Source of the DNA: Lama guanicoe
Lineage: Eukaryota
DNA length: 64,000 bases
NCBI GenBank assembly: GCA_013239625.1
Contig: MU053933.1
Span: forward strand, 3,712,470 to 3,776,469
Direction: 5' to 3'
Positions 29,117 to 64,000 of this stretch are shown here, in pieces (within the stretch, counting starts at the first letter, position 1; each line of letters starts with the position of its first letter). Both the position numbers and the translations under genes were made by a program. The notes under the pieces are model-generated. The model ran no database searches and was not told where the DNA came from. It was given only the letters and a program-made list of their open reading frames with translations.

Positions 29117-29647
29117 GTTTTAGAATTGTTAGCTACTACAGCCTGGAAAGAATTTTATAAATTAAAGCCCACAGTTTAACAGTAGTCCATTTTGCCTTTG
29201 CAAAATGATTCTGTACATTTCAAAAGTTAACCTAGGTCAGCACCTCTTGCCCTCTACTGACTTGCCCTCTACCTTCCACCCATTTCTAATAGTTAGATTC
29301 TGTCACTTTGTGTATTCCATTCTGCAACACTCCTACACCCTAATCAACTAAATTCGAATAGATTATGATTGACCTTTGGGCTGTACAAATGTATGGACTT
29401 AGACATACTCATAGTGACACAACCTAAATTATCCCAAGGAACAGTTCAACCCTTCACCCCCACCCCATTATCTGCTTATGTGTGTAGTTTTGCCTTTTCC
29501 ATAATTGTCCTAAATAGGGTCATACTGTGTGCAGCCTCCTCAGACTGGATTCTTTCAGTTAGTAACATACAAGTAAGATTTGCCTATGTCTTTATGTGGG
29601 TTGATGGTTTTATTTTTATTGCTAAGTAGTATTCCATTGCATGTATA

Positions 29648-30179
29648 TGAGAGTAAAACCAGTTTTCCCTCTATCCTTCTAGGCTCTTGGATGAGACCTC
29701 CCAGCCCCACCCCCCGATAAGACAGATTACCAGGAGAAAGAAACAAGTTCAATAACACGTATACCTCCAGTATACCGGAAAGATACCCAGGAAAACTGAG
29801 CCCTCCCCCCCCGAAATGGCCAAAGACATCACCTTAAATATGATCTTTAGTTTAAAACAAAAGCAAGGCCTTGGGGAGGGAAGAAGTCATTTATGGCAGG
29901 TTACCATGAAAGCTCAGTAAAGGAAGCTATGTTTGTTATGCAGACTTAAGTCAAGACTTCTCTATTGATAAGAGTTAGTTAAGGTTTAATCAGCCTTCTA
30001 TTTCTGGTACAAAGAGGGACACACTTACAAATGTAGATTTTCCTAATAAATGTAAATGCCACTTACAAAAGGGCAACCTCCACTCAGTTTTCTAAGATTA
30101 TTTTTTTTTAAATTAGACTAAATTAATCCTTATGCCAAAGAAGCCTATTTTGGGGTGCCTTATTCTGTTCTTTTTGACA
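29648..30179 (-). mobile_element. ERV1 (MER34-like) solo LTR. Related copies at 38190-38714, 50970-51245 (truncated), ~59830-60200, and in opposite orientation at ~35890-36275 and ~55985-56340.
   Basis: ttttccctctatccttctagg...gacagattac..gagaaagaaac...gaaatggccaaagacatcaccttaaata...ttttggggtgccttattctg. Same L1 insertion context (ttccattgc) in three copies. Confidence 0.7.
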
Positions 30180-32233
30180 TGGATGTACCCCAAATTGCTT
30201 ATCCATTCATCTGTTGAAGGACATCCTGATTTCAAGTATTTAGCCATTATGAGCAGAGCTGCTGTGCATAACTGAATCCCAGTATGTCTTTGGACATTGT
30301 TTTTCTTGCTTAAATACTGGAAGCAGGAATGCTATATCCCAAGGTGAGACTTGTTTAGCTTTGGGAAAAACTGCCAACCTGTCTTACGAAGTGGCTGTCC
30401 ATGCATTCCACCAGCAATGAGGGAGAGTTCTGTTGTTCCTCACCACCAGCAATGAGATTGTCATATTTTTGGAGTTTAGCAGTTCTAACAGGTGTGTCAT
30501 GATCTCTTTTGATTTTAATTAGTAATTCCCTGATGGCATATTTTTGTGTGCTTATTTATGATCTGTATGTCTTCTTGGATCAGGTATCTGTCCAGATCTT
30601 TATCCGTTTTTTATGGGGTTATTTTAGAGTTCTTTGTATATTTTGAGTGAGTCCAAATCATTTATCAGACACGTGTTTTGTAAATATTTTTCTCACAGTT
30701 TTATGGTTTGTCTTGGTTTTCTGAATAAGGTCTTTCAGAATAGAAGTCTTTAATTTTATAAAGTCCATAATCTTACTTTTTTTGTGGATTGGCTTTATGT
30801 GTAGTGTGATAAAACTCAAAGGTCATAATCTACATTATCAAATGCAAGGTCACATAGATTTTCTTCTGTTTATCTCTATAACTCAATTTTGGATTTTAAA
30901 TATGTGTGAATAAATTTGAGTGAATTTGTTGTAAGTGTTAAAGTTTCTGTTTCCATTCAGTTCATTCCATATGGCTTCCAATGAATTGTTTCTTAACTGT
31001 TTGGAGAAGCTAGGGATATTTGGCTTTATTTTAGTTTGAATTTCCAGTTTAAAAGACTCAGCTGAACTATTCTCAGGGGGGTGGGGCCCCTAGCTGTGAG
31101 GGGTGCCTGTTCCACACTTTCCTGTCCGTAGTGTAGTGGACTGAGCTGAGCTGCCCTTGGGTGGAGCTTCCGCTGGCTGTGAGGGTGGCTGAGCCTGCAC
31201 TTTCCCATTGGCCAGCAGGGCCCAGAGCCCGCCTCCCCTACCTGTGGCGGGAACACACGTTCAGCCCGAGGATTTGGCTTCCTGCGCAGCTGACTAGAGC
31301 CACGTCTCCTCTGGACCTGCTGGGCCTTTGGGACAACAGGGGGTTATGTCCATGCTGAAGGGACCCCAATCTCCTCAGGACCCGACAGGAGTTGCTGCAC
31401 TGAAGGAAGGGTGTGGAGAAAGAAAAAGTGAGAATTTTCCTGTGAGGGGCTGACTGCTGAGGGGAATCCCTCCTCAGAGGGCCCGGGAGAGGAAGGGCTG
31501 GATGTGGGGAACTGTGGGTTTTAGTCAGTTTTTGTGTGTGGTGTAGAGTGTGCCATGTCCTTTGTGTGTGGTGTCCAGTTTTCCCAGTGTTATTGAGGAG
31601 ACTGTCCTTTCCCTAAGCATATGTTCCTGGCTCCTTTCTTGTGACTTAACCGACCACATACCCCTGGGTTTATTTGTGGGCTCTCTATCTGTTCCTCTGG
31701 TCCATGTCCTGGTTTTTGTGCCAATTCCGCACTTTTTTGGTGACTGTAGTTTTGTAATGCTGTGTGAAGTCAGGGAGGGAGATGCCTCCAACTTGTCCTC
31801 CTTTCACAGAATCCTTCTGGCTGTTCAGGGTCCTTTGGGTTTCCACACAAATGTTAGGGATGTTTGTTCTGTTTCTGTGAAAAATGACACTGAAACTTAT
31901 TTTATTAAAGTATAGTCAATTTACAGGGTTTTGTTATTTTCTGATGTAGGGCATAGTGATTTGACCAGGTTTGCTTTGAATCTGAACATTGCTTTGGTTA
32001 GAATGGATGTTTTAACAATATTAATTCTTCCATCTATGAGCACAGGATATCTTTCCATTTATTTGTGTCTATTCAGTTTCTTTCCTCAGTGTCTTAGAAT
32101 TTTCAGTGTTCTGATCTTTCACATCCTTGATTAAATTTATTGCTAGGTAGTTTTTGGGGAGGATGCAATTGTAAATGGGATTTTAAAAAGTCTCTTTATA
32201 ATGTCTTATTATTTATTTATTTGTTTATTTTCC

Positions 32234-32397
32234 TAAGGGAGAGCACAAATGCCATCCACCACTACCACAAATTATGCAGTCGATTTTCTGACATTTGGAG
32301 AAATCTCAGGGGTCAGCATATCCGAGGTGCAATGGATAAGCCTCTCCCTGGGAAAACCACCTTCATGATCATGGTATCTCCCCTGCCAGGTAAGTAT
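32234..32397 (-). pseudogene. U1 snRNA retropseudogene, full length (164 nt)
   Basis: Minus strand ATACTTACCTGGCAGGGGAGATACCATGATCATGAAGGTGGTTTTCCCAGGG...AATTTGTGG (Sm site)...CTCTCCCTTA. A-rich tail and ~15-bp TSD taatgtcttattatt (32199-32213) / tgatgtctcattatt (32400-32414). Confidence 0.93.
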
Positions 32398-34663
32398 GAT
32401 GATGTCTCATTATTAATGTAGAAAGACAACTGATTTTTGTCTGTTGATTTTGTTCCTTGTAGCTGTACTAAAATCAATCATCAGTTCTAACAGGTTTTTG
32501 ATGATTTGTTATGGAAAACTAGAAATCAGAAATCACCCTGTTTGGACTCCATCCAGGTCATCCACAGCATCCAAGACACAGTATCTCCTAATCTTCCTAC
32601 AGTGCCTCTAAATTACCTGTGGACTCCTACAAGGGTGGTTATCATCAGAACTTTGGGTGAACTGAATCTAGTTAAGGGTTGGTCTCTATAAGGAAATCTG
32701 ATGTCTTCTCTGCTTTTTCAACACAGTGTTGACAATGGTTGTTTTGAAAAGTAATTTATTTTCTAGTAATTTCAAACATATAAAAAACTTTTAATAGTAT
32801 TACAAAGTACTCATATTTACCACCTGACAAAATGCTCTAAAACTGGGATACTCTCAGGGAACCAGCACATAAACCCCAAATGAAGAAATTTTATGGTTCC
32901 ACGTTGTAATCCCATCCACAGGCCCACTTCAACCTTCCCCATTGCCCCAACTTAGGGAAATGTATTTTTCCATTCTGATCTAGTTTTCTTTTTCTGAAAC
33001 TATTATTGAGATTTCCCTCTTTTTCAAAATCTTAATGGATTTGAAGTGCGTAAGATGAGTTTGATCTTGACCTCTTCTGTGTGGCTTCTTTCATTTAGAA
33101 TGTTTTCAGTGTTCAACCAGGATGTAACATGTATCATTAGTATTTCATTCACATTTTTCATTGTTATTAAAAATACAGAACATAATGTTACCTTTTAAAC
33201 CATTTAAATACACAGTCCTAAGGTATTAACTAAATTCACACTGTTGTACAGATACTTCACTGTCCATCTCCAGAACTTCATCATTTCCCCCAAGGGAAAC
33301 ACGGTATCCAGTAAGCACTAACTTCCTTCAGCTCCTTGCAATGACATTGTTTCTATCTCTGCATTTGACATCTGGATACCTGGTATAAGTGGAATCACAT
33401 ATTTGTCCTTCTTTGTCTGGCTTATTTGACTTAGCATAGTGACTTCAAGAATTATTCACGTTGCAGCATGTGTCATAATTTCCTTAGTTTTTAAGGCTGT
33501 GTAGTTTCCCATTGTGTATACACCACATTTAGTTTAACCATTCATTTGTTGATGGACAGCTGAGTTGATTCCAACTTTTGCTGTTGTGATTAGTGCTGCT
33601 ATGAATATGGTTGAACACCAGTCCCTGCTTTCAAATATTTTGTATATATATATACACTGAAGTGGAATTTTTGGATCACATGTTAACCCCATGTTTAAGT
33701 TTTTGAGGAACTCCCATGTGGTTCTCCACTGTGACTGCACCATTTTATTCCTTTATATGGCAGAATCATAGAGCGGTTTATGGATATACTGTTTGTTAAT
33801 CTATTTAGCCTTTGATGGACATTTCAATTGTTCTGCTTTTTGGGCCATTGTGAATAGTGCTGCTATGAATATTTGCAAACAATTTTTTTGTTTGTTTGAA
33901 CACCTGTTTTTAATGCTTTGTGTTCTATGTCTAGGAGTGAAATTGTTGAACCATAAGGTAACTGCATTTTTATCTTTTTGAGGAAATGACAAACTACATA
34001 TAAGCTGTACCATTGTCAACTTTTTCAAGTAATGTTTAAAGGTTTCCATTTCCCTCCATTTTTACCAATATTGGTTGTTTTTAATTTTTTTGATTGTACA
34101 GCTTCTAGTGTGCTTGAAAAGGTACAGCATTATGGTATTAATTTGCATTTCCATCATGACTGATTTTTTAACGTCTTTTCATGTGCCTGTTGACTATTTG
34201 TCTTGTTCAGAGAAGGGTGTATTTAATTTTTTTTTAAAAAAATCTAATTTTATTTATTTTTGCTGTTTTTTTTCAGTTTTATTAGGTAGAATTATTACAG
34301 TTTGACCACACACATATACATTATATTACCTGTAAATATATATAGAAATATACTGCACATTTTTTTTCAAAGAAGGGTCTATGTAAGTCCTTTTACTATC
34401 TTAAAAATTGGATTTTGTGTTTTTATGAGTTGTAAAAGTTCTTGATAAAAATTTTTTTAGGTATGCAATGTGCAAATATTTTATTTGATTTTTGTTTGTG
34501 GTCATTTCACTTTCTGGATAGCGTCTGATGTACAAAGTTTTTAATTTTGAGGAAAGGCAATTTAGTTTTTTCTTTCCTTGCTTGTGTTTGCTTTCAGATC
34601 TAAAAAAATTGCTAAATCCAAGGTCATGATGACTTATCCTCTCTGTTTCTTTGAGAGTTTATA

Positions 34664-35003
34664 CAGCTTCCCTCCCTATCTGTGAGGTATTGGTTCCAGG
34701 ACACCCTGTGGATACTAAAATCTGTGAGTTCTCAAATCTGTTATATAAAATAGTGTAGTATTTGCAAATAATCTAATCACATCTCCCTGTATACTTTAAA
34801 TCACCTCTAGATCAGTTATAAAACCTAATACAATGTAAGTGATATGTAAGTAATTGTGAAGAAAATGAAATATTATTTAAATCATTTCTGGCATGCAACA
34901 AATTCAAGTTTTTCTTTGTGGAACTTTCTCCAATTATTATTATTATTTTTATCTGAAGGTGGCTGATTCTGCAAATGTGGATTCAGCAGATGAGGGCTGA
35001 TTG
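34664..35003. mobile_element. MER2/MER2B (Tigger-family) DNA transposon
   Basis: ta|cagcttccctccctatctgtgaggtattggttccaggacaccctgtggatactaaaatc...tactttaaatcacctctagat...gagggctgattg. Paralogous copy at 54776-55115. Confidence 0.85.
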
Positions 35004-36917
35004 TTGCTTTACCTGTCTTTAAATTTAAGCTTTTTATGTACCTTGAGTTAATTTTGTATGTGGTGTGAAGCAACGATCCAATTTCATTTCTCTTAGAAAT
35101 GAAAAATTTTCGTTGGATAAACAATTGCCTGGCACCATTCCCCCCTCCCCCAATTTAATGCTGCCCAGTGTTGTAAAAAAAAATCAGTTAGTGCATGTGT
35201 CTTTTCACATTTGAGTGTTGCTCTGGATACATGCCCAGCAGTGGGATCTCAGACCTTTCTTGCTTCTGACCTAAACAGGAGGAGGTCACTATGTGGAACC
35301 TACATTTCAGGAGATGGGGGTTTATCTCCACCTCCTTGGTGGATGCCATTGATTATTAGGAATTCTCCTGCATAGGAGTTTTCTATTCAATTCCATTTAT
35401 TTAAAAAAACAAAACAACAACAATAACAATAACAAAAACCCTATGTCATCATTTAACTTCACCACTGTGGGCACATGGATAGTTATTTTAATCTTTGATT
35501 AGAATCCAGCAATGCAGAATTTGGTTGCTCTGTCTATTCCTGCTTTGGATATTGAGACCTCTTTTCATTGGCTCCTGTTTCCTTTGAGATCATTCTATAT
35601 TTTGGTCCCCCCCCCCGGTACTTCCTTATATTCTGATACAAGTTTCAAGATTATTCTGAATCATATATTTACTGTCTCACTTCTAGTATAAGCCATCTCT
35701 TCAAAGAGTCCTGGTTCCTTTAATTAGAGAATGGTATTAAGAACTTACATATGGGAGGAAAATGTCCTCAGCCAACAATGCAAGGAAATGTATGCCTGTT
35801 TTCCCGCCTACATGTATTGTTGCTCAGGGAGCAACTCCATGCCCCTTCCCTCAAATCTACCACAACTACATAGTGATTGTTTAAAATTTAAGTTACTTAG
35901 AAAATGGCCAAAGGAAGAGGGACACTCTGACTCCCACTCTATCTCTCTAAAAGCAGGAAATAAATCTGTCACTTGAAAGGTTCAGAAGCCCACATAAACA
36001 TAACTTGTTACTTCTTTAACTTACCACCCCCAAGCCCAAACTCTATTAAGATTCTTCATTAATTGAGTACCCAAAAGCTACATTCCTTTGGGCTGTCAAT
36101 TCATAACAAATCAATAATTTTCTAGATGTATAAAATCTGCCTGGTTTTACTACTTACTTCCTATTTCTATGAGACTTTTGTGTATAGGAATTAAAAATTT
36201 TTTTTCTCCTGTGGCTCTCTTGTGTTTGTTTTACTATCAGTCCAGCCACAAGAAGTGAAATTTCTCCCTCCCCAATAGAATACACTCCTAATTATAAAGA
36301 TTTCTATGTGGAAATGTTTGTATTCATATTAAGCTGAAGACGAGTGTATGCTGATGCCTCCAGCCTGATCCATTATCACATGGACAGTGTACATCTCCCC
36401 CTGCTTATCCATAACTCCCAGTTAGACAGTGAGGATCCTCATTCCCACCATCTTCCATCCATTCAATTCATTTCTCATTCTACTCCAGATGAATGGTTTC
36501 AGCATTCTTAGCTCCCACCCTTGTGCAATGGAACTTTATAGATTCTGTGCAGTATGTTTTCCCTTTAGTCTACACATTCTGTTCATTACCACAGTTACTG
36601 AGGCTGGCAACTTTTGCTCCACCAGTGTCAGTGAGTGCTTCCATACCTTTCTAATACAGATTCTTTTTTACATCCTGTATTCTATCCTGTGACACTACCA
36701 CTTACTCGATCACTTAATTGACTCATTGGGCCATAGAAAACTATGGGTTTTGATAAGTGGATATTGGCAGATGTACATCACTCAAGTATTACATGGAATA
36801 TTTCAAAACTCTCACATGATCTGTTTACCACCTCTTAGTTTTCCCTGTTCCTGAATTTCATATAAATTGGGTTATACAATGCATATGTAGACTCTTCAGA
36901 TTGGATTCTGTCACTTA

Positions 36918-38096
36918 TGAAAGGAAAATCAACATGGAGTTGATATTGATAAGAGAGCTATGTAAAATGGAGTGAGGAGCCCATTTAGTATGAATGAATG
37001 AAAGTCTAAGTTTTGACCTGATGAAATCATCCAAAATATCTGCCAGAAACTTATCTATCTGCCAGTAACCTATCTACTTATTGTATTCTTAGCTTAAAAT
37101 AATTCATGACAGTCTGTCTATGTATTGGACACTTACCCTAAATTAACTCATGATTCCTTAAGGACAAATATTTTTGGACTCACATCAGAGTCCATCACAA
37201 TTATGGCCAGTGAACTTTTAACAACCTCCTGGACTTTTGTCTTTATAAGCCTCTGTACTCTTATTCTTATCTGGAACACTCTTTAAGGGTTACCTGAATC
37301 TGTACTGGGAAACAAGCTGATGGAAAACAAACCACTGGATAACAAGCAGCTAATAAATAAGCCACACCTAGATTTCAATGAGCTTAAAACATTGTATTCA
37401 CACTTGCTTGCTTAAAATGCACATGCTTGATTTGTTTTAATGTTTTATGCAGTAGATGGCCTATAGCACATACTATGCTAAAGAAAATTTGTGGTGAGCA
37501 ATCCTGAGATTGACCATAAGGGCATGAAAGAAGGCATATGTTTCCTCAGGGTAAACAATGGATGGTCCTGGAAAGCCAGGTCATCCAGTAACAGAACTTT
37601 GTTCTGGCATGAAAGCATGCTGTTTAACCTGAGGGAAATATTTTCTATCTCAAGATGGCCTGGAGACAATCACAGGGTAGGCTCATAAATCTCATATACC
37701 CTGAGAAGGGTGATTGTTCCTGGAGGGGATAGGCTTGTACTTAATCAATCACTTAGCAAGCAGAACTTAGTGCTTATCACATGGAATATCTAAAGCCTCA
37801 CCTCTTTGATCACAATTTTTTTTTGAAGCTGTATACTCCTAATAAATATAATGTCAACCAGGCTTTTGGCACTCTCGATCCACGAGATCTTGAGTCCCCT
37901 GGTCCCATCTTTTCTTTGTACTTTGTCTCTTTGTTTCTTAAGTCTTGCATGGCCTGTCCTCAGACACAGTCCTGAGCTGCACTGGATGCAGCAAATCTGT
38001 GTCTTCCAAATGCAATTCTTAATTCATCACCCAAATAAACATTTTCCTATTTGCAGTTTCCTACATTATTATTACTATTATTATTTTGTTTGCACA
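36918..38096 (+). mobile_element. Solo ERV LTR with a nested second LTR
   Basis: TG...CA with TSD ctta (36914-36917 / 38097-38100), inserted in an antisense L1. Its 5' part recurs at 57011-57225. Confidence 0.75.
37301..37993 (+). mobile_element. Nested solo ERV LTR (693 bp)
   Basis: tgtactggg...gcagca with perfect TSD aatc (37297-37300 / 37994-37997). AATAAA at ~37841. Confidence 0.8.
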
Positions 38097-40814
38097 CTTA
38101 GCATTATATGTGTAAGATTCTTCTATATCTTTGCATAGATTGGTAGTTCATTTCTTTCCACTGGTAAATAGTATTCCATTGCATGTGTATGAAAGAAAAA
38201 ATAATTTTTCCTCTACCCTTCTAGGATCTTGATTGATATCTCCTCTGTGATAAAAGATTAAGAAGAGAAAAACAAAGAAGTTTAATAATGTGTATACCTC
38301 CTGTACTCTTGAGAGATACCAAGGAACACTGAATCGCTTCCAGAAATGGCCAAAGCCATCACCTTAAATAGCATGTTTAGCTAAAAGCAAAAGAAAGACT
38401 TGAGGAAGGGAGGAAGCCAGTTATGCCAGGGTGTCATGCAAAGCACAGTAAACATGATATGGTTGATACTTAGATTTCAGACAAGACTTTTCCATTGATA
38501 AGAGTTACCTGAGGTTTAATTACCCTCCTATGTCTGGTACAAAAAGAGGAACACACCCTTACAAATGGAGAATCCTGTAAGAAATGAAAATGTTTCTCAC
38601 AAAAGGGCAACCTATGCTGTATTTTCTGAGAGTCTTTAAAAAAATTAATCAGACTGAAACAGTCATTAGGCTACAGACCTATTTTGGGGGTGGCATATTC
38701 TGTTCTCCTTGACATGAGTGTGCACTGTGTTTTGCAAGTACTTCCTCCCAGTTTGTGGTTTGTCTTTTGGCTTTCTGAGTAATGTCTTTCACAGAATAGA
38801 AGTGTATGTTTACAAAGTCCATGTTATTAATTTTTTGTGTTATTTTATAGATAGTCATTTGGTGTCTTGTGTTAAAATGCATCACCAGGCCCAAGGCTTT
38901 ATAGGATTTCTCCCATTTCCTTTAAAAATTTTTATAGTTTTGTCATTTAAGTTTCTCTATGGGCAATTTTGAGTGAATTTTACTATTGCTCATGAAGTTT
39001 GTGTCTATGTTCTCTTCATTCTGTATGTTTTAAAATTAATTGTTCCTTAACCATTTTTTTGAGACAACATAATGAGATATATGGCTCTGTTTCAGCTTGG
39101 ATTTCCAAAGGTACTACATAGAGCAGAACCACTTCCCAGATGAGGTCTCTAGGTTTTGTGAGCTTAGCGTTCCCCGAACTTCTCTGATGACCCACAGCAA
39201 GGCGCCAAATCCACCTCTCAGACCCACGGGCACAAGTGTATTCTGCCCACGGACCTGGCCCTTTGCACAGCTGGCAGAGGCTTGGTCTCCTCAGGACTGT
39301 CAGGGCTTTGGCTTCTAGACAATGGGGTTATGTCCATGTGGTCATGGGCTGAATTTTCTTGGGCATCACTAGTGAGGAGGAGCTGCAATAGGAAAGGAAA
39401 AGGACAAAGTGAGGAGAAGCTTCCTGTGTGCAGTTGACTGCTCAGGGAAGTTCTGTCTTCAAAGGAACCTCAGAACGAAGTTGATGAGGGAAACTGTGGG
39501 GTTTTAGTTTTAGTTAGTTTTGTGTGCAGTGTAGATTGTGACCAGTGATGTTCTTTGGTGCATAGTGTCCCATTTTCCTAGCACTGTTTATTTAGGAGAC
39601 TGTCCCTCCCTCTTTGTATGTCATTGGCCCAATTCTCATGAATTAACTGACCACAGCCATGTGGGTTTATTTTTGGGCTCTGTATGCTGTTCCTCTAGTC
39701 CGTGTGTCTGTGTATATGACAATTCCTCACTATTGTGGTCACTACAGCTCTGTGATACAGTTTGATTCTAGGGAGTGAGATGCCTGCAGCTGTGTCCTTC
39801 TTTCTCCAAACCTCTTTGGCTGTTCAGGGTCCTTAGTTGTTCTATATTAATATTAGGGTTGTTATTTCTATTTCAATGAAACATATCATTGAATATTATA
39901 TTGATGTTGCAGTGAATTTGTTGATAGCTTTGGTTAGAATCAATATGTTAGTAATTCTTCCAATCCAAGAGTACAGAATATTTTTCCATTTATTTGTGTC
40001 TTCTTTAATTTCTTGTTTAATGACTTACAGTTTTTTGAGTACCAGTCTTTCACATCATTGGTTAAATTTGTTCCTGGATATTTTGTTCTTTTTGATGCAA
40101 TTATAAATGTGATTGTTTCCTTAAATTTTATTTCTGATGGTTCACTATTAGTGTATAGAAATGGAACTGATTTTTGTACATTGACTTCATATTGAACTTT
40201 ACTGATTTTATTTATTTTACAAACTCTTTGTAAAGTGTTGTGGAAAATTGTAATTTTAATATCTCAATGTTTCTCTTGTATTGCAGGTCATCCACACGAC
40301 CCAAGGCCTGATGGCTACTAGTATACTCATCCCACAGTACCTCTTAATAACAAGTGAACTCCTACAAGGGCGATTAGCATCACAACCTTAGTTGACCTTG
40401 GTCTGGATAAGTCTTGGCCTCTATATCAAAGTTTGATGTCTATTTTATCCACTCTTCTGGCATGGTATTGATATGGTTGTTTCAAACTGTAATGGACTTT
40501 CCAGTAATTTCTGTAATGATAAAAAGTACTCACAGTACTATTTGACACAAAGTATTGTAGGGTGTTTTACCCCAAACAGGGACATTCTCCTGAGGAACCA
40601 TCATGTGACTCGTAAAAGAGGAAGTCATATGGTTTCCACATTATTATTTAGTCCTCAGGCCCACTTCAACTTTCAGCAGTTGGTCAAATGGCATGTTTTC
40701 TTTTTCTGGAATTGTTACTGAGACTTTCTCTCATTTTGACAATCTTGATGGATTTAAAGCATGCATGATGACCATGTGATCTGGGAGAACTTTTCTTTAT
40801 GACTTTTTTTTTCA

Positions 40815-41395
40815 GCAATGTGTATTCAAAGCCTTAAAAATGTGCATACTTTTCACTCAGTAATTTCACTTCCAGGAATCTGTCCTAAAGAAATAATAAA
40901 AGTTCTGCAGTGAATTAAGAGAATCAGGACTCTATGTACTTTAAATTATATATATATATATATATATATAATCTATATGTAATCTTTATAGAAAATTTAA
41001 ATATAAAGATGTTATTCACAACATTGTTTACTCTAGAAAAAAAGTTGGAAATAACCCAGAAAGGACATTGGTTAGACAAATTATGGTTTACATGTAGGCA
41101 ATATGTGTATTATGTAGGAATACAATGTAGCCATTTCAAAAATAAGTTTTCTAAAAATGTAAATGACATGAGAAAACAGTTACAATACACTGTTAGGCTG
41201 AAGGGGGAAAGCAGGCTATAGGGTAATACATCTATAACATATGACCCTGATTCTGTAAAACATGACATCTGCATATATACCTGCAAATAAAGGGCAGGAG
41301 GACTGAACAGTAGCTCATCTTTAGATGTGAGAATTACCCCCTTTTGTGTCTGTTATGGGTTCTACATTTTCTACAATGGCAATGTATTTGTTTAG
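40815..41395 (+). mobile_element. L1ME-type 3' end containing a (TA)n microsatellite (~40947-40970)
   Basis: ttcactcagtaatttcacttccaggaatctgtcctaaagaaataat...aagatgttattcacaacattgttt...ttttctacaatggcaatgtatt. Confidence 0.7.
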
Positions 41396-42424: not shown

Positions 42425-42600
42425 AGTACTTTCACCTTCATTACCTCATGTGGTCCTGGGAGGTAAGCAGAAATAGGCAGTGGCCATTTTACAGAGGAAA
42501 TAACTGAGGATCAGAAAAGTTAAATAATTTGCCTGAAAGCTCAAAAGGGTCGGTGGCTGACTAGCTGGACTCAGCTCCCCAGCCCCATTTTCTCCACATA
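42425..42600 (-). mobile_element. MIR SINE
   Basis: ccattttacagaggaaataactgaggatcagaaaagttaaataatttgcctgaaagctc is the MIR core. Confidence 0.8.
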
Positions 42601-42813
42601 CGAACCCAGGTGTTTTGGCACTACACTTAGACTGAATAAAGACATCCCTGTCATAAAGCTTTGCCTCCTGTATTTTGACAACAGCAACCCTGTAGGGATG
42701 GACTCCATGGCTGCAAGTATCAACTCAGGGCATCAGCGGGAGGGCATGTACAGAGGGAAGAGCCACATGGACCCTCTGTACAGATGGTAAGGGAAGCCCT
42801 GTTGTCTGAAAGG

Positions 42814-42835
42814 GTGTGTGTGTGTGTGTGTGTGT
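42814..42835. repeat. (GT)n microsatellite
   Basis: gtgtgtgtgtgtgtgtgtgtgt. Confidence 0.9.
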
Positions 42836-46982: not shown

Positions 46983-47042
46983 AATTAGTTCATGAGCAGT
47001 AATAACCCCAAAGTATAAAGAGAGTATAGATATATATGCATA

Positions 47043-49096: not shown

Positions 49097-49216
49097 CCCC
49101 TCCCAGAGCATGGGGCTTAAGTGGGCAGGCCCCTCACAGGATATGGAGCTCACCTGGGCAGGCACCCAGCAGCCCCCGGGGCTCACATAGGCAGGCCCCT
49201 CCCAGGACATGGAGCC
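49097..49216. repeat. Degenerate ~33-bp minisatellite, ~3.5 copies
   Basis: catggggcttaagtgggcaggcccctcacagga / tatggagctcacctgggcaggcacccagcagccc / ccggggctcacataggcaggcccctcccagga / catggagcc. Confidence 0.7.
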
Positions 49217-51334: not shown

Positions 51335-51775
51335 GGATATTTGGCTCTATTTCAGTTTGAATTTCCGGTTTAAAGGATTGAACAGAGCAGCTGTCGGGGC
51401 GGGGCCTCAGCTGGCTGTGAGGGCGGCTGGGCCCGTGCTTTCCTATTGGCTGGCAGGGCCCGGAGCCCGCCTCCCCCAGCTGCGGTGGGAACTCACGTGC
51501 ATTTTGCCGGAGGATTTGGCGTCCTGCGCAGCTGCCTGGAGCCACGTCTCCTCTGGATCTGCCAGGGCTTCTGGACAACAGGGGGTTATGTCCACACTGA
51601 CAGGAGCCCAGTCTACTCAGGACCCAACAGGAGGTGCTGCACTAAAGGGAAGGTGAGGAGGAAGGAAAAGTGAGGGAAAGTGAGGAGAAGCTTCCCGTGA
51701 GGGGCTGACGGCTGAGGGGAGGCCCTCCTCAGAGGCCCTGGGAGAGGAAGGGCTGTATGTGGGAAGCTGTGGGCT
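51335..51775 (+). promoter_or_regulatory. Candidate promoter/first-exon module (best-preserved of 5 copies: ~31015, ~39075, ~51335, ~57920, ~60975)
   Basis: GC box GGGGCGGGGC 51396-51405, ATTGG 51445-51449, CACGTG 51494-51499, donor-like AAG|GTGAGG at 51653. CpG-enriched relative to the L1 flanks. Confidence 0.4.
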
Positions 51776-54775
51776 TTAGTCAGGTTTTGTGGGTGGTGTA
51801 GAGAGTGTGCCATGTGCTTCTTTGGTGTGTGGTGTCTGGTTTTCCCAGCACCATTCATTGAGGGGACTGTCCTTCCCCCGGTGCAGGTTCCTGGGTCCTT
51901 TCTTGTGAATTAACTGACCACACACCTTTAGGTTTATTTGCAGACTCTCTCTGGTCCATTTCCCTGTCATTGTGCCAATTCCACACCTTTTTGGTGACTG
52001 TGCTTTTGTAATGCCATGTGAAGTCAGGGAAGGAGATGCCTCCAGCCTGTTTCCCTTTTGTAGACTCCCTCTGGCTGTTCAGGGTCCTTTGTGTTTCCAC
52101 ACGAATGTTAGGAATGTTTGTTCTGTTCCTGTGGAAAATGCCACTGAAGTTTATTTTATTTTATTGAAGTATAGTCAATTCACAATATTCTGTTATTTTC
52201 TGGTGTAGGGCATAGTGATTTGATGAGGCTTGCTTTGAGTTTGAGCACTGCTTTGGGTAGAATGGACATTTTAACAATGTTAATTCTTTCTGTCCATGAG
52301 CGAAGGGTATCTTTCCATTTATTTGCATCTGTTCAGTTTCCTTCCTCAGTGTCTCAGAATTTTCGGTGTGCAGGTCCTTTCACATCCTTGATTAAATGTA
52401 TTCCTAGGTATATTTTGGATGCAATTGTAAATGGGATTTTAAAAAATGTCTCTTTCTGATGTTTCATTATTAATGTATAGAAAGACAACTGACAATACAC
52501 AATTGTGTATTGATTTTGTACCTTGTAGCTTTACTGAAGTGATTCATTAGTTCTAAGAGTTTATGATGATTTGATGTGGAAAACTAGAAATCAGAAATCG
52601 CCCTGTTTGGACTCCATCCAGGTCATCCACAGCACCTAAGACACAGTGGCTCCTAATCTTCCCACAGTGCCTCTAAATTGCATGTGGACTCCTACAAGGG
52701 CGATGAGCATCAGCACTTTGGGTAAAGTGGTTCTCATTAAGGATTGGCCTCTATAAGGAAATCTGATATCTTCTTTGCTTTTTTGGTGTGGTGTAAACAT
52801 GGTTGTTTTCAAAAGTAATTTAGTTTCTAGTAAACTTTTCTTATAAAGTTCTGTATAAAATACTTTAAATAGCATTACCCAGTACTCACATTTGCCACCT
52901 CACATAAAATACTCCAGTGGGTTTTACCTAAAACTGGGATACTCCCCCAGGGAACCAGCACATAAACCCCAAATGAAGAAATTTTATGATTCACTTTGTA
53001 ACCCCATCCACAGGCCCACTTCAGCCTTCCCCATTGCTCCAACTTCTGGAAATCCTTTTTTCCCATTCTGTGCCAGTTTTCTTTTTCTGAAACTATTACT
53101 AAGAGTTTCCCTCTTTTTTTTTTTCCAGAATCTTAATGGATTTAAAGCACACAAGATGAATACGATCTGGGTGGCATCTTCTGTGTGTCTTCTTTCACTT
53201 AGACTGTTTTCAGTTTTCATCCAGTTTGAATCATTATTGATTCATTCACATTTTCATTGTCCTTAAAAATACAGAACATAACATTTACCATTTAAACCAT
53301 TTAACTATGCAGTTCTGTGGTATTAACTAAATTCATATTGTTGTACAGATACCTCACCATCCATCTCCAGAACTTACTCATTTTCCCCAAGTGAAGTCCT
53401 GTGTCCAGTGAACACTGACTCCCCTCAGCCCCTGGCAAGGACACTCTTTCTATCTCTTCATCTGACTTCTCTGGATGCCTTGTATAAGGGGAATCATATA
53501 TTTGTCCTTCTGCGTCTGGCTTATTTCACTTAGCATAGTGACTTCAAGATTTATTCACGTTGCAGCATGTGTCATGATTTCCTTAGTTTTTAAGGCTATG
53601 TAGTATCCCATTGTGTATACACCACATTTAGTTTATCCATTCATCTGTTGATGGACAGTTGAGTTATTTCCACGTTTTGCTGTTGTGATTAGTTCTGCCA
53701 TGGGTATGGGTGTACCCGTTTCTATTCCAGTTCCTGCTTTCAAATATTTTGAACATATATCCTGAAGTGGAATTGATGGGTCACATGTCAACCCCATGTG
53801 TAAGTTTTTGAGGAACTCCCATATGGTTCTCCACCATGGCTGCACCATTTCATTCCTTCATGGCAGAATCGTAGAGCAGCTTATGGATGTACCCTGTTTG
53901 TTTATCTGTTTAGCCTTTGATAGACATTTCAGTTGTTCTACCTTTTGGGCCATTGCGAATGGTGCTGCTATGAATATTTGTGTACCTTTTTTTTTGTTTG
54001 TTTGAACACCTATTTTTAATGTTTTGGGGTCTATGTCTAGGAGTGAAGTTGTTGATCCATACAGTAACTGTATTTTTTATCTTTTTGAGGAAGTGACAAA
54101 CTGGAAACATGGGCTGCACCATTTTCCAATTTTTCAAGTAATGTTTAAAAGTTTCAGCTTCTCTACATTTTTGCCAATATTTGTTGTTTTTAGTTTTCTT
54201 GATTGTAGAGCTTCTAGTGTGCTTGGGAGGGATGGCATTATGGTATTAATTTACATTTCTATCATGACTGATTTTTAACATCTTTTCATGTGTTCATTGA
54301 CTACTTGTTTTGTCTGGAGAAGGGTCCATTTAAAAAAAAATTAATTTTATTTATTTATTGGTGTTTTTCTTTTTCATTTTTATTAGGTAGAACTATTACT
54401 GTTTGACTGCATGTATACATTATATTGCATGTAAATACATATATACAATATACTATACATTTTAAAAAAAATTTACATATTGAGGAGGGTCTATTTAAGT
54501 TCTTTCTACCATGTTAAAAAATGAGTTTGTTTTTTCTGAGTTGTAAAAGTTCTTGATAAAAATTTTTTTCAAATATAATGTGCAAATATTTTCTTTGATT
54601 TTGTGTGCTGTCCTTTCAGTTTCTGGATAGCATCTTTGATGTACAAATGTGTTTAATTTTCAGGAAAAGCAATTAATTATTTTCTTTTCTTGCTTATGTT
54701 TGCTATCAGATCTAAAAAAATTGCTAAATCCAAGGTCATGATGACTTATCCCCATTGTTTCTTTGAGAGTTTATA

Positions 54776-55115
54776 CAGCTTCCCTCCCTATCTGTGAGGT
54801 ATTGGTTCCAGGACACCCTGTGGATACTAAATATCTGTTGGTGCTGAAATCCATTATATAAAATGGTGTAGTATTGACAAATAATCTAAGCACAGCTTCC
54901 TGTATACTTAAAATCATCTCTAGATCACTTATAATAAATAATGCAATGTAAATGGTATGTAAGTAATTGTGAGGAAAACATAATGTTATTTAAATTGTTT
55001 CTGGCATGCCACAAATTCAAGTTTTTCTTTATGGAACTTTCTCAAATTATTATTATTCTTTTATCTGAAGGTGACTGATTCTGCAAATGTGGAATCAGCA
55101 GATGAGGGCTGGTTG
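54776..55115. mobile_element. MER2/MER2B copy in block A'
   Basis: Same sequence and same insertion site as 34664-35003. Confidence 0.85.
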
Positions 55116-58100
55116 TCACTTTACCACTCTTTAAATTTAGGCTTTTTATGTATCTTGAGTTAATTTTGCATGTGGCATGAAGCAAGGATCCAATTTCACT
55201 TCTCTTAGAAATGAAAAAATTTCACCGATAGACAATTGCCTGACACCATTTGTTGGAAACACAATTTTTCCCACAATGTAATGTTGCCCACTGTGGTAAA
55301 AAAAATCATTTAGTGCATGTGTCTTTTCACATTAGAATTTTGCTCTGGATACACGTGCAGCAGTGGGATCTCGGACTTTTCTTGCTTCTGACCTAATCAG
55401 GACGAGGTCACTATGTGGAACCTACACTTCAGGAGAGGGGGCTTTAGCTCTACCTCCTTGATGGATGCCATGGATTATTAGGAATTCTTCTGCATAGGAG
55501 TTCTCCCTTCAATCCCATTTATTTAAAAAAAAGCCCAACAACCTATGTCATCATTTAACGTCACCATTGTGGATGCCTGGATAGTTTCTTTAATCTTTTG
55601 GTTATAATCCAGCACTACAGGCTTCGTTGCTGAGTTCATTCCTGCTTTGGCTACTGAGAACTCTTTCTTTGGTTCCTGTTTCCTTTGAGGTCATTCCACA
55701 TTTTGGTTTTTTTCTACCCTGGTACTTCCTTACTTTCTGATACAAGATTCAAGATTATCCTGGCTCATATATTGACTTCTCAGTCCTAGTATAAGCCATT
55801 TCTTCAAAGAGTCCTGATTCCTTTAATTAGAGATGGTATTAAGAACTTACATATGGGAGGAAAGTGTTCTCAGCTGACAATGCAAGAAAATGTGTGCATG
55901 TGTTCCCATCTTAGTGTATTGCTATTGCTCAGGGACCACCATCCCCCATCCATCTGCCACAACCACATAGTGTTTTAAATTTAAGTTACTTAGAAATGGC
56001 CAAAGCAAGAGGGACACTCTGACTCCTGCTTTATCTCCCTAAAAGCAGGAAATAAGCCTGTCATGTGAAAGGTTCAGAGGCGCATTTAAACATAACTTGT
56101 AACTTCTTTAAGTTACTACCCCAAGCCCAAACTCTGTTTAGATTTTTCAAAAGCTACAATTCTTTAGGTTGTCAATTCCTAACAAATTTATAGTTTTCTA
56201 GATGTATAAAACGCCTGTTTTCACTACTTCTTACTTCCCATTTCTGTGAGACTTTTGTGTGTAGGAATTAAAATTTCTTTTTCTCCTGTGGCTCTGTCTT
56301 GTGTTAGTTTTATTATTAGTCCAGCCACAAGAAGTCAAGAGGGAGAGAGAGTGAACCCCCCCCCCGTAGTATACACTCCTAATTATATAGATTTCTATGT
56401 GGAACTGTCTGTATTCATATGAAGCAGAAGACGGGTTTATACTGATGCCTCCAACTTTATCCATTATCATATGGACAGAGTACATCTCGCCCCCCTGCTT
56501 GTCTCCCAGTCAGACAGTGGAATCCTGGTTCCCACCAGCTTCCACCCATTCAATTCATTTCTCATTCTGCTCCAGATGAGTGGTTTCAGCGTTCTTAGCT
56601 CCTGCCCCTATGGGATGGATCTTACAGATCCCACTGTTCACTTGCAGTACGTTTTCCCTGTAGTCTACACATTCTGTTCATTCCTGCAGTTACTGAGGCT
56701 GGTCCCTTCTGCTCCACCAGCAGCAGTGAGTGTTTTCATACATTTCTAATACAGAGGCTGTTTTACATCCTGCATTCCATCCTGTGACACTACCGCTTAC
56801 TCGATCACTTAACTGACTTGTTGGGTCATACAAACCTATGGGTTTAGACAAAGCATAATGGCAAATGTCCATCACTAAGTATCATATGGAACATTTCAAA
56901 ACTCCTGCATGACCTGTTTACCATCTCTTAGTATTCCCTTTCCCTCAATTTCACATAAATTGGGTCACATAGTGCATAGGTAGCATCTCCAGACTCATTC
57001 TTTATCTTTTTGAAGGAAAATTACATGGAGTTGGTATTGACAAGTGAGCTCTGTCAAATGGAGCCAGGAGCCCATTCAGAACTTGTGACCTATCTTATCA
57101 CATCTCAGCCTGGATCAAATCCTGAGTTTAGACCTGATGAAGCCACCCAGGACATCTGCCAGAAACTTATCTGTCTGTCAGAAACCTACCTACTTATTGT
57201 ACTCTTGGCCTCAAATAATTCAGGGCATACTGATCACTTGAGTTTCTAAGCCATTATGAATAGACCTCCTGTGCATTACTTGATGTTCATTTTTGTTTGA
57301 ACAGTTTTTCAAAGCAATTGTTTAAATTCAAGAGATGATTTTTTTTTTGGATTCTAAGTTGAGACTGTTTAGCTCTGTAAGAAACTACCAAACTGTTTTC
57401 CAAAGTTGGCCACACCTGTCTTCCACCAGGACCTTGAATGTATTTTTGTATGATTGTTTTCTACCTGTATACCTTCTTTAGCCAGATGTTTGTTTCTATC
57501 TTTATCCATTTTAATGGGGTTGTTTGTTCTAGATTTTACTGATATAATTTGAGTACAAATCCTTTATCAGATACACATTTTGCAAATACTTTCTCCTTGT
57601 TTGTGGTTTCTCTTTTGCCTTTATGAATAAGACCTTTCACAAAGTAGACGTCTATAGTTCTATAAAGTCCGCATTATTAATTTTGTATTGATTTGTAGAT
57701 AGGCATTTGTTGTTGTGTATTAAAACTCATCACCAGACCCAAGGTCTTTCAGATTTTCTCCCTTTTCCTTCTAAGATCTTTATAGTTTTGTCATTTAAAT
57801 TTGTCTATAGGCAATCTTGAGTGAATTTTGCTATCAGTTGTAAAGTTTGTGTCTATGTTCTCTTCATTGTATATGTTTTTTAATTAATTGCTCCTTAACC
57901 AGTTTTTGAGACAACATAGTGAGCTATTTGGCTGTGTTTCAGTTAGGATTTCCAAAGGCACTATGTACAGCAGAACTGCATTCAGGATGCAGACTCTGGG
58001 CTTTGTGAACTCAGCGTTCCCTGAACTTTATTTTAAATGGTTCACAGCGGGGTGCCAAATCCACCTGTGACCCACAGGGCACACCTTGTGGGTCATTCTG

Positions 58101-59135
58101 CCCATGGACTTGGCCCCTTGCACAGCCGACAGGGGCTTGGTCTCTTCAGGACTGTCAGGGCTTTGTCTTCTAGACAGTGGGGCTGTGTCCATGCTGTCAT
58201 GGGCTGAGTTTTCTTGGGCATTGCTGTGAAAAGGCACAATAAGAGGAAAAAAAGACCAAGTGGGGAGAAGCTTCCTGTGTGGTGCTGACTGTTCAGGGGA
58301 GTTCTGTCTTCAGAGGAACCTCAGAAAGAGGTTGATGTGGAAAACTGTGGGGTTTTAGTTAGTTTTGTGTGCAGTGGGTGATGGTGACCAGTGATGTTCT
58401 TTGGTTCATGGTGTCCCGTTTTCCTGGCGATGTTTATGGAGGGGAGTGTCCCTCCCTTTTTATATGTCCTTGACCCCATTTTCATGAATTAATGGACCAC
58501 AGCCATGTGGACTTATCTCTGGGCTCTTTACGCTGTTACTCTGGTCCGTGTGTCTGTGTTTGTGCCAGTTCCTCACTGTTGTGGTTACTACAGCTCCTTG
58601 ATACAGTTTGATGCTAGAGAGGGAGATGCCTCCAGTTGTGTCCTTCTTTCTGAGAACTTCTCTGGCTGTTCAGGGTCCTTAGTTGTTCTGTATTAATAGT
58701 AGGGTTGTTATTTCCATTTCAATGAAACATCACTGAACATTATATTGATGTTGCAGTGAATGTGTTGATAGTTTTGGGTAGAATCAATAATTTAATAATA
58801 GTAATACTTCCAATCCATGAGTACAGAAAATTTTCCTGTTTATCTGTGTCTTCTTTAACTTCTTTTTCAATTCTTCATAGTTTTTTGAGTACAGGTCATT
58901 CACATCCTTAGTTAAATTTGTTCCTGAATATTTTCTTCTTTTTGATACAATTATAAATGTGATTGTTTCCTTGAATTTTCCTTCTGATGGGTTATTATTA
59001 GTGTATAGAAATGCAGCTGATTTTTGTATATTGATTTCAAATTGAACTTCACTGAATTTATTTATTTTAAAAACTGTTTGTTAAGTGTTGTGGAAAATTG
59101 TAATTTTAAAATCTCACTGTTTCTCCTCATCCCAG

Positions 59136-59255
59136 GTCGTGCACAGGATCCCAGATTTGCTGGCTCCTGGTGTACTCCTCCCACAGTGCCTCTTAATAAC
59201 AAGTGGACTCCTACAAGGGCGATGAGCATCACACCTCTGGCTGCCCTTGGTCTGG
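59136..59255 (+). other. Candidate 120-nt internal exon (best-preserved of 5 copies)
   Basis: tgtttctcctcatcccag|GTCGTG...TCTGG|gtgagt. Paralogues start at 32557, 40287 and 52622 (all cag|GTC) and at ~62141 (AG lost). Confidence 0.4.
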
Positions 59256-62200
59256 GTGAGTCTTGGCTTCTAGAACAAGGTTGGAAGTCTGTCGTATCAG
59301 CTTCTCTGCCATGGTATTGATATGGTTGTTTTGAAAAGTAGTGGACTTTCCAGTAATTTCTAGGATGGTAAAAGCTACTCACAGTTGTCCCTTTATACAA
59401 AATACCATAGGGTGCTTTACCCCAAACAGGGGTAGTCTCCCGAGGAGCCATCATATAACCCACCAGTGAAGAAGCCGTGTGGCTTCTGCATCACTGTGTG
59501 ACCCGCCGGCCCCTTCAGCTGTCACCGCTTGGTCCAGCTGCTTGTTCTCTGTTTCTGGGTTTGCTACTGAGACTCTCACTGTGACAACCTTGATGGATGT
59601 GAAGCACACACGATGACCATGTGATCTGGGAGAACTTTTCTTTATGGCTCTTTTCACTAGGGATCTTTTCAATGTTTGTTAATGGTGTAAGTTGTATCAG
59701 TTCTACATCCCTACATGATTTTCACTGTGATTAAAAATACATATGACACTTTTTAATTGAAATCATTTCAGGTACACATTTCTGTGGTATTAACTACGTT
59801 TACATAATTGTACAAACAAGTTCAAGAACTTGTGTGCCTACTTTAAGCATGGGAGATGCCCAGGAAATTGAGTAATTCCCTGAAATGGCCAAGACATCAC
59901 CTGAAATACCATCTTTCTCTAATACCAAAAGAAAGGAAGGTTCTATTCATTATATAGATTTAAATCTTAGCCTTCTCTATTGATAAGTTTTTTGAGATTT
60001 AGTCTTTCTTTTATTTCTGGTGCAGAAAGGGAGATTACTTTTCAAATGGAGATATCCCATATAAATGTAAATTTGCCTCACCAAAGGCAGTCTTGACTTG
60101 GGTTTCATAGAGTCTCATGTGTCTTAAGTTTTAAGAAATCTGCCCATTGTAATCTTCATGCCAAAGAGATATATTTTATGGTGTCATTTGCCCTCTTTCA
60201 CATGGGTGTACCCCAACTTGCTTATGTATTCATGCATGGAAGGACATCGTCATATTTTAGAGTTTTTGATTAGAGTTGCTGTGCATAATTGCATGCTAGT
60301 TTTTGTTTGGACACTTTTTCAAAGGAATTGTCTAAATACTAGAGGTGCAATGTTGGATTCTCAGGTGAGCATTGACTAGCTTTGGAAAAAACTGCCAAAC
60401 TGTCTTTCAAAGTAGCCACACATGTATTCCACTTGCAGTGAGGGAGAGTTCCTGTTTTTCTTCATCTTCCATGTCATTTTTTCTTCATCAATCATGTCAT
60501 TTTTTTTGAGTTTAGTGGTTCTAATGAGTGTGCAGTGTTATATCATTGCTGTTTTAATTTGCAATTTCCTACTGGTATATGATTTTCGAGAATATTTTTA
60601 TATGCTTATTTACTATCTGTGTATTTTCTTTGGAGAGGTGTTAAGATCTTTACCTATCTTTATTGAGGCTGTTTGTTGTAAAGTTCTTGGTGTAATTTGA
60701 GTCCAAATCCTTAATCAGTTATGTGTTTTGTAAATTAAAGCTTCTCAGTATGTGTCTTGTCTTTAGGTTTCCTGAATAAGGTTATAAACAGAGTTTAAAT
60801 TTTTAATTTTTTAAATTCTATGATATAAATTTTACTTCTGTGGATAGACTTGGGGATTTTTGTAAAAGTTGGTCACCTAGACAAGGTTTTGTAGATTTTC
60901 TTATATGTTTACTTTTAGAATAATTCCAGATGTGCATTATATAATTGTGGACAATTTAGAGAACATTTTGGTGTGAGTGGTAAAAACTTGAGTGATTGTG
61001 GCCTGCAGTCCCCAGCTGGCCAGCAGGTGACACTATGCCTGTTCTCTGACCCTCAAGGTGCACGTGTCTCACTGAGGGATTTGGCTCCTGTGAGAACTTG
61101 GCTCCTTACAGGGGCTGCTGGAGGCTGGGTCTCCTCGGGACCCATCATGGTTTCACCTTCAGGACAATGCTCAACCAAGCAAGTCCACGGAGACAGAAGC
61201 CAGACGTCTTCAAGAATCACCAACAGGCATCACCGTGGGAATAAAAGGTGAGGAAAAAGTAGGGAGAGGCTTCTTGTGTGATTACAACTAAAGGTTTCCA
61301 TTTTCAGAGGATCCAGCAGAGGAGTGGCTTGATGTGGACATTTTTTGAATTTACTTGATTTTGTGTTTAGTGCTGACAGTGTCTAGTGTCATTTTTTGAG
61401 GTATGGTGTCCCATGTTCTTGGCACTGTTTATTGAGGAGACTGTCCTTTTCCCAATTTGTGTTCTTGGCTCTTTTGCCATGAATTAACTGACAGCATAAA
61501 GATGGGTTTATTTCTGTGCTCCCTATTCTGTTCCTCTGGTCCATGTGCCTATTTCTCTGCCAGTATCTTACTGTATCTCTGCTGGTGACTGTGGCTTCCT
61601 AATATCACGTGAAGCCAGGGAGGGAGACGCCTCCAACTGTGTTCTCCCTTCTCAAGGTTGCTCAGGCTATTCCAGTTTCTGTGTTGTTACATACAAATGG
61701 TAGGATTTCTTGTTTTATGTGTATGTGAAAAAAATGCCATTTGAATTTGGTAGAGTTTGCAATTAATGTGTGCACTGCTTAGGCTTCATGAATGTTGTAG
61801 TAATGTTCTTCTAGTGCATGAGCACAACTTTATTTTGTGTGTGTGTCCCCTTCAATTTCTTTATCAGTGTTTTCTAACTTTCCACGTGCAGGCCTTTCAC
61901 ATCCTTGGTTAATTTTATTCCTAGGTTTTTTTTTGTGTGTGCATTTGTTAAATGGGATTGCTATATTAATTTCTCTTTCTGAAACTTCTGTATTAGTATA
62001 TAGAAAGTCAATTTTTGTATATTGATATTATATCAAGTAGCTTTACTAAAAGTATTTATTATTTTTTAACAGTTTTTTTTTGTATTTTGATGCGGAAAAG
62101 TAGAATTCAAAATTGCCGCTGATTTTTTTTATCACATCCAATTCATTCACAAAAACCAAGACACAGTGGCTTATGATATTCTCTTATGGTGTCTCTTAAT

Positions 62201-63549
62201 AATATGTAGTTTCCTGCAAGGGTGATTAGCTTAACCATTTTGGATCAACTGGAAATGGAGAAGACTTGGACTCTATAGTGAAGTTTGATGTTTTTTCTGC
62301 TTTCCTGTAGAAAATTATTTACTTTCCAATAATGTTAAACATACAGAAAAGGTGCAGTAGCAGTACAATGTCCTCTTTATCTGTAAGCTCAGGTTTCTCA
62401 CTCATTGTTGATGTAGCACGTCTGCCACTTTTCATGACAATCTCTAGTGTGTTTTTGCCTTGAGTAGAGATTCTCTCTCTGTGGCACCACATAACACCCA
62501 AATGAGGATTCATTATGGTTCTCACTTCATAAATCAGTCCACAGGCTCAGTTCCACTGTCAGCACCTGCTCCAACTGTATGGCAATGGGTTTTCCTAATC
62601 CAATCCAGTGTTTTTTTGTTTCCTGGAACTGTTCTTGAGACTTTCCCTTATTTTCCCAACTTTAACTGAATTAAAGGGCACAAGATGAGTGTGATCTGGG
62701 TGGCCTTTTCTGTATAGCCTCTTTTTCTTAGAATGTTTTCTTTGTTCATGTTGTAACAAGTATCAGTACTTCATGTTTTTCTTTGTGATTAAATCTATTC
62801 CATATAATATTTACCATTTAAACTGCTTTAAGTATATAGTTTCATTACATTTATGTCATGAAGTTTTTGGATATTAACTACATTTACACTGTTGTAGAAA
62901 TATTCTCAGCATTCATCTCCACTACTTTTTCAGTTTCCCCAGGTGAAGCTGTATCCATTAGACATGAACACTTAACCCCCTGGCAAGTACATTGTATGTT
63001 TTGTTATTGAATTAGACTTATACGGATACCTCATCTTAGAATCATAGGGTGTTTGTCCTTTTTTAGTTTGGTTTGGTTTGTTTCCCTTGAATAACTTCAA
63101 GGTTCATCCACATCATAGCATATGTCAGAATTACCTTCATTTTAAAGGCTGAATGCTATTTAAATGTGTATATAGTACATTTTGTGTATGGAATCATCCA
63201 TCCATGCACACTTGGGTTTCTTATGTCTTTTGGCCAGTGTGAATAGTGCTGGTATGAACATGGCTGTAGAAATGTGTTTTTCAGCCCCTTCTTTCAAACC
63301 TTTTGGGTTTATACTCTGAAGTTGAATCAATAGATGATAGATATTATCCACAGTGGCTGTACCATTTTACTTTATTTCTTTCAATGGCAGAATTACATGA
63401 AAGTTTATGGATCCACTGTGCTTTGCATATCTATTCATCCATTGATGGACATTTGAATAGTTTCTACCTTTGAGCTATTTCAAATGCTGCTGCCATGCCT
63501 ATTAGTGTAGTGTAGCATTTTTTGTATGGACATGTGTTTTAAATTTTTT

Positions 63550-63567
63550 GATATATATATATTATAT

Positions 63568-63598
<31 letters not shown>
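63550..63598. repeat. Imperfect (TA)n microsatellite
   Basis: atatatatatattatatatatatatataatatatatatatatatata. Confidence 0.9.
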
Positions 63599-63625
63599 GA
63601 GGGAAGTTGCTGAACCAAGTGATAG

Positions 63626-64000
63626 TTGTTGAGGGAAAGCTGTGACTCAGCTATGGTCATCAGAGACCTTAGCACAGCCAAGGAAACAATAGCTTAGCTT
63701 AAATTGAATACTATTTACCAACATCATTGACCATCATAACGTGTTATTGAGTCAGTGGTCACAGGACATTCAGAAATTACACATCCACATGCAAATCAGT
63801 AAATAGCTTGCTTTATTACCCCTCTGCTTACTGCTTAATCTCATACTTTGTCCTTATCACCTTCCCACCCCCCCCAAACAAGGCAAAGGATATAACTATG
63901 TAAGATTCAACTAACTCATCTAACAAACATATTGCCCTTACTTCACCAACCCAGTTACTATAACTAGAAATTGGCCTTTTAACTCTATCTGCCAACTGTT
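63626..64000 (+). mobile_element. Probable ERV LTR, runs off the window end
   Basis: Abrupt switch from antisense L1 (gaagttgctgaaccaagtgatagt) to tgttgagggaaagctgtgactcagc... with LTR-like composition. Confidence 0.45.

Follow-up and report, generated by a model that had tools for sequence, protein, structure and literature searches.

What are the two short modules that recur five times amid antisense L1 debris in this 64-kb window of camelid DNA (the window being the whole stretch analyzed), and are they still in use? The sequence-only reading had described one module, P (~440 bp), as promoter-like and the other, E (~260 bp), as exon-like, and had proposed a multi-copy transcript family. 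We consider it fairly probable that the array is the decaying front end of an old plus-strand unit, with its promoter and two non-coding exons, and that this unit was multiplied and partly re-copied. A living family is unsupported because the modules diverge like L1 or faster and no copy is complete, but a largely decayed one is supported. The features on which this analysis is based are listed in Table 1.

Table 1. Features of the window. Shown are positions within the window, strand, and remarks.
Feature	Position	Strand	Remarks
Intact V1R, 309 aa	7244-8173	-	3' of PRMT2
V1R upstream exon	9005-9046	-	P0036, from another assembly, links a homologous stretch with the coding exon
Second V1R gene fragment, ~110 bp	24894-25005	-	Between L1 pieces
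Block A	29117..40820	+	Alpha-type unit U1 plus beta-type unit U2; copy of block B at 80-82% identity
P1	31014..31519	+	GC 58%; E2F6-type motif 31246; CCAAT 31207; donors weak; 70 bp duplicated internally
L1 ORF2 fragment between P and E, U1	31521..32198	-
U1 snRNA retrocopy, full-length	32234..32397	-	143.7 bits; unit U1 only
E1	32506..32767	+	Acceptor kept (weak), donor lost
P2	39071..39506	+	Decayed; GC 50%; strongest minus-strand acceptor, at 39382
Same L1 ORF2 fragment, other units	39556-40185, 51778-52565, 58363-59036, 61359-62045	-
E2	40235..40505	+	Good acceptor 40287; donor GT lost
Non-repeated spacer between blocks	40821..50329	.	CpG island at ~44.0-45.5 kb
LOC116664062 exons	~49144-49021, 45.37-45.25 kb, from ~44.89 kb	-	Canonical donors in window
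Block B	50330..59814	+	U3 (alpha) and U4 (beta)
P3, best copy	51335..51774	+	GC 61%; 15 CpG
P3 motifs	GC boxes 51396/51421/51466, CCAAT 51445, E-box 51494, donor 51653	+
E3	52571..52831	+	Acceptor kept (exon would begin at 52622), donor lost
P4	57918..58352	+	Decayed; GC 50%; 3 CpG; weak donor
E4	59085..59354	+	Sole intact 120-nt exon, 59136-59255
Unit U5 (gamma)	59812..64000	+	Third old unit, reaching window edge
P5, most diverged	~60912..61349	+	E-box 61061; donor 61248
E5	62087..62330	+	Acceptor and donor both lost

Profile searches based on the alignments found exactly five P and five E copies in the 64 kb, confirming the five-copy repeat that had been claimed, and no additional significant copy of either module elsewhere in the window. 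All ten modules lie on the plus strand, and the order P then E, at a spacing of 1.1 to 1.5 kb, holds in five of five units, also as claimed. Tandem Repeats Finder reported short repeats only and no array matching the unit size. Rather than five independent units, the array is a simpler arrangement: the block A/B copy plus U5, which directly adjoins block B in the self-comparison. The same comparison gave identities of 80 to 82% for U1/U3 (over 4.9 kb) and U2/U4 (over 2.1 kb) and 64 to 73% for the remaining pairs, bearing out the close pairs 1/3 and 2/4 described earlier. Unrooted trees of the P, E, and L1 parts each showed (U1,U3),(U2,U4),U5 with support of 99 to 100. Both results support two rounds of amplification. 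On these sequence relationships, three old units (U1/U3, U2/U4, and U5; 65 to 72% identity) came first, and the two-unit block would later have been copied across the CpG island. The ends of the alpha units (36.4 to 37.0 kb and 56.5 to 57.0 kb) are homologous to the start of the following unit, as expected for a tandem array.

All 14 L1 hits to the right of 29 kb were on the minus strand, in agreement with the claim that nearly all L1 pieces are antisense; these hits, however, trace back to only a few ancestral insertions. Hits to the young L1 of the window (ORF2/3' end) covered 0 bases in 10 of 10 modules, and in each unit P and E alone were left uncovered. Judged by eye, the L1 pieces on either side of each P appear to stop at nearly the same ORF2 position, within ~100 bases, and the left and right pieces look like what we take to be two different subfamilies. 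An element at 29650..30180, presumably an LTR on the minus strand, is common to U1, U2, part of U3, and U5 and thus predates the array, whereas the U1 snRNA retrocopy must have inserted after the block duplication since it is found in one unit only. Rfam assigned no family to P or E, the retrocopy being the only hit at gathering score, and between 50.4 and 64 kb it gave a single hit (E = 0.84).

If the modules were in use, they might be better conserved than the flanking L1. They were not: E diverged equally and P faster, one of the outcomes that the sequence-only reading had itself listed as counting against it. For close, alpha-beta, and gamma pairs, respectively, the divergences were 16%, 31%, and 34% for E; 15%, 33%, and 32% for the L1 between P and E; 21%, 34%, and 35% for the downstream L1; and 18%, 38%, and 50% for P, the last figure being inflated by the poorly aligned 5' half of P5 (42 to 46%). 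Relative to L1, P had diverged significantly more in four of six pairs and E in none of six. The exon core of E was slightly less diverged between alpha and beta (26% versus 33%), with significance in one of six pairs (P = 0.038, uncorrected for 18 tests). The conserved E core described earlier is exact in two of the five copies, and the other three carry 1, 2, and 8 mismatches; the longest run invariant among U1 to U4 was 13 nt in E, within this core, versus 18 nt in L1. Base composition also shifted. The beta and gamma copies of P lost G+C (S>W 15 versus 5 and 39 versus 15), and alpha gained G+C in both P and L1. Promoters and non-coding exons, even when used, often show little constraint.

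Were the modules, then, ever a promoter or an exon? They might be old pieces of an unrecognized transposon, or intergenic DNA, copied along with L1. The neutral-like divergence and the longer invariant run in L1 fit this explanation, as does the T-rich antisense context, which favors chance acceptors. However, no copy lies beyond the array in the 64 kb, and a homolog from outside the window points the other way. An exact scan of metagenome contigs with a 17-base seed from the E core found 64 loci, and the seed was masked before comparison. One locus, L061, matched E (E = 5.5e-46, seed masked); the other 63 were chance seed matches. None of the 64 matched P. L061 is non-camelid mammalian host DNA with a SINE that we assume to be of the CHR-2 type (whales, hippos, and ruminants). 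It bears E plus matching downstream L1 pieces, and this shared downstream context makes it a locus-type homolog rather than a dispersed copy. Without the seed, its E is 77 to 79% identical to U1/U3 and 71% identical to U2, U4, and U5. Both the acceptor and the GT donor are kept, 119 nt apart, although the exon was not significantly better conserved than its own flanks (P = 0.12 to 0.43). Taken together, we regard a history without promoter or exon as improbable. If rates were similar, the three old units would predate the split of the L061 lineage (ortholog or further paralog) from camelids, and the block copy would be younger than the L061 branch.

The splice signals of E are consistent with its being a former exon. 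The cag|GTC acceptor claimed for four of five copies was borne out, as was the clean 120-nt AG...GT exon of copy 4. Among the four segments scored, the plus-strand E acceptor was the best-kept splice signal, present in five of six rows (including L061) at 3.5 to 7.1 bits on a rough matrix that gave genuine PRMT2 sites no more than 2.8 and 4.4 bits. The donor, in contrast, is present in two of six rows, U4 and L061 (one of the five window copies). Exon lengths range from 115 to 120 nt, with no constant multiple of three. Since L061 keeps both the acceptor and the donor, E was probably once a non-coding exon of ~120 nt, as judged solely from extant copies.

For P, the evidence is uneven among copies. 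The best copy, P3, contains the CCAAT, GC-box, and E-box motifs ascribed to it earlier, has kept 15 CpG (observed/expected ratio, 0.39), and carries its motifs 5' of the donor, the order expected of a promoter followed by exon 1 on the plus strand. The trio of GC box, CCAAT, and E-box turned up in 18 of 5,000 dinucleotide shuffles and in none of 50 background windows rich in GC, a post hoc result that concerns the best of five copies and motifs named beforehand by the earlier note and that rests mostly on the E-box. The GTGAG-like donors that had been described are strong in U3 and U5 but in only these two of the five copies; a weaker GT at a second site is found in all five. In addition, the purine run of P scores 5 bits or more as an acceptor on the minus strand in four of five copies (sites 31399, 39382, 51641, and 58223), which counts against the plus-strand reading. 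No coding sequence was found. In the two of six P3 frames searched for protein matches, there was no genuine match: the minus frame returned one spurious repeat protein among 1.84 billion, and the plus frame returned none among 42 candidates. A bacterial promoter scan, a model irrelevant to a mammal, found nothing.

No unit has every part intact (0 of 5). A good example of this is the pair U3 and U4: U3 has the promoter motifs, the P donor, and the acceptor and lacks the E donor, whereas U4 has the exon and a decayed P. The proposed anatomy of a promoter-like P and an exon-like E is thus supported as an ancestral state, given the E acceptor in five of six rows and the donor in L061, but not for any present copy. 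By sequence, an RNA spliced from P3 to E4 could still form.

This raises the question of whether the array is still alive as a set of alternative germline promoters on the plus strand. RNAs from P3, and perhaps from P1 and P5, would splice from 51652 to E4, skip the donor-less E3, and continue to a gene or lncRNA past the window. The P3 motif cluster, its CpG retention and strong donor, and the intact exon in E4 argue for this. So does a pair of motifs: the E2F6-type motif of P1 and the E-box of P3 and P5 lie in neighboring alignment columns, and according to the portion of PMC8195999 consulted, an E2F6 site with an E-box marks germline promoters repressed by PRC1.6. However, the same portion describes the E2F6 motif as not specific to germline genes, and the two motifs never occur in one copy (E2F6 in P1 only, E-box in P3 and P5 only). 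Further, the modules show no excess conservation over L1, the two P3 frames lack a protein match, and no downstream gene was identified within the window. We consider a live array unlikely.

A second set of alternatives involves the neighboring genes. The window starts with the last plus-strand exons of a gene that, from its peptide, we take to be PRMT2 (Pfam PRMT_C), and the locus is presumably subtelomeric on camelid chromosome 1, going by the synteny we assume. Among named relatives, a cattle V1R (79%) comes closest to the V1R protein, and others occur in pig, cats, bats, colugo, and sloth; the gene appears single copy in artiodactyls and cats and expanded in bats and colugo. None of 321 metagenome stretches held a V1R relative. 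For the cattle ortholog, three RefSeq accessions share a single protein, named isoform X1, implying that the variants differ in the UTR; several transcript variants are unusual for a V1R. P and E could be V1R cassettes on the minus strand, with E transcribed first, followed by an exon starting at the P acceptor, and would then represent either V1R blocks that have been orphaned or distant alternative promoters for the intact V1R. In favor of this, the acceptor is present in four of five P copies, the fragment between L1 pieces indicates a former second V1R gene, and the cattle accessions imply UTR variants. Moreover, V1R genes expand as ~10-kb blocks with one or two non-coding exons and 0.5 to 1 kb of promoter homology, in the part of PMC1955453 available. 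On the other side, an HMM of 114 V1R proteins, tblastn, and a DNA search found V1R coding sequence only at 7247-8173 and 24894-25005 and no remnant in any unit. P/E homology is absent between the V1R and 29 kb, the V1R already has an upstream exon near 9.0 kb (P0036), and the CpG island separates the blocks. On the minus strand, E has a donor of >4 bits in one of six rows, and thus no conserved donor to pair with the P acceptor. Finally, V1R promoters are more conserved than their blocks, whereas P has diverged further than the L1 lying between the two modules. We judge this explanation very unlikely.

The spacer island itself has homologs in other mammals' assemblies (P0142-P0145) and is without a known gene. 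A Camelus ferus model, LOC116664062, runs across it on the minus strand and matches the window at up to 95%; its translated part excludes P and E, and P3 lies 2.2 kb upstream of the model. No link from the array to the V1R or to LOC116664062 was found. The array might be a live bank of PRC1.6-type germline promoters, in which P3 RNA would run via E4 toward the telomere, and P1 and P2, placed upstream of the conserved island by the camelid block copy, could set its methylation by germline transcription across it, much as with the Snrpn U exons; P3 would perhaps also divergently drive the minus-strand RNA modeled across the island. This is most unlikely in our estimation.

The decaying front end of an old plus-strand unit therefore remains the explanation we prefer. 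The ancestral unit would have consisted of a CpG-type promoter and non-coding exon 1 (P), an intron now reduced to the antisense L1 fragment that separates P from E, a second non-coding exon of ~120 nt (E), and further antisense L1. Tandem multiplication of this unit would have produced three or more copies before camelids split from the L061 lineage, probably by unequal crossing-over between L1 pieces at the unit ends. Later, in the camelid line, the alpha-plus-beta block would have been copied across the CpG island. The copies would since have drifted at about the neutral rate, losing different parts, and would now be mostly relics. In this account, we infer the ancestral promoter and exon function, the plus direction, the mechanism of duplication, and the present inactivity.

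Tandem cassettes of a promoter plus a first exon that arose by local duplication are known from the repeated promoters of MAGEA4. Several other systems resemble the array, each with differences. First, the variable first exons of Pcdh and Ugt1 (PMC2819257, in the part consulted) are likewise tandem promoter-plus-first-exon cassettes from local duplication, and the array does consist of homologous promoter-exon cassettes in tandem and in a single orientation; however, the exons of Pcdh and Ugt encode protein and are joined by splicing to constant exons that they share, whereas the cassettes here are non-coding, two-exon, and decayed. Second, the U exons of Snrpn/SNRPN, as presented in the consulted part of PMC3248558, are several non-coding alternative exons upstream of a CpG-island gene, and the human upstream region is cited there as multiply duplicated. 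Those exons are transcribed in oocytes and brain and spliced to a known gene, whereas the array is known from sequence alone, and there is no sign of homology between the two. Third, V1R gene blocks, in the same part of PMC1955453, are tandem and L1 rich with islands of non-coding homology, and a V1R adjoins the array; but those blocks include a coding exon and a promoter conservation peak, the array has neither, and its likelier strand is opposite to that of the V1R. Finally, regulatory element families from segmental duplication (bioRxiv 10.64898/2025.12.03.692127, in part) are promoter-like and duplicated rather than transposed, but they have open chromatin and functional validation, and the array is far older. 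By analogy, the array may be built like the Snrpn upstream exons or a variable-first-exon array, of which it is a candidate member only. No publication on the array or on the PRMT2-linked V1R locus was found in the literature searched, whose reach mostly excluded subscription journals, and the available part of PMC6944220 does not mention the locus.

As a fossil, the array would mark a transcription unit next to the PRMT2-linked V1R locus that has been lost or has gone unannotated. It would also illustrate the complementary decay of duplicated promoter cassettes, a point of limited interest. If germline activity persisted at P3 or P1, this would be an array of upstream promoters, so far undescribed, on the flanks of a conserved CpG island.

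Some minor features of the window were also apparent. A 33-bp minisatellite (3.6 copies, 49097-49215) overlaps the first coding exon of LOC116664062, and a weak self-inverted similarity of ~290 bp (20 bits) lies at 42798-43095. Just outside PRMT2, at ~6440-6535, there is a degenerate run of telomere-like hexamers with two exact units, which may be the relic of a chromosome end or part of a repeat.
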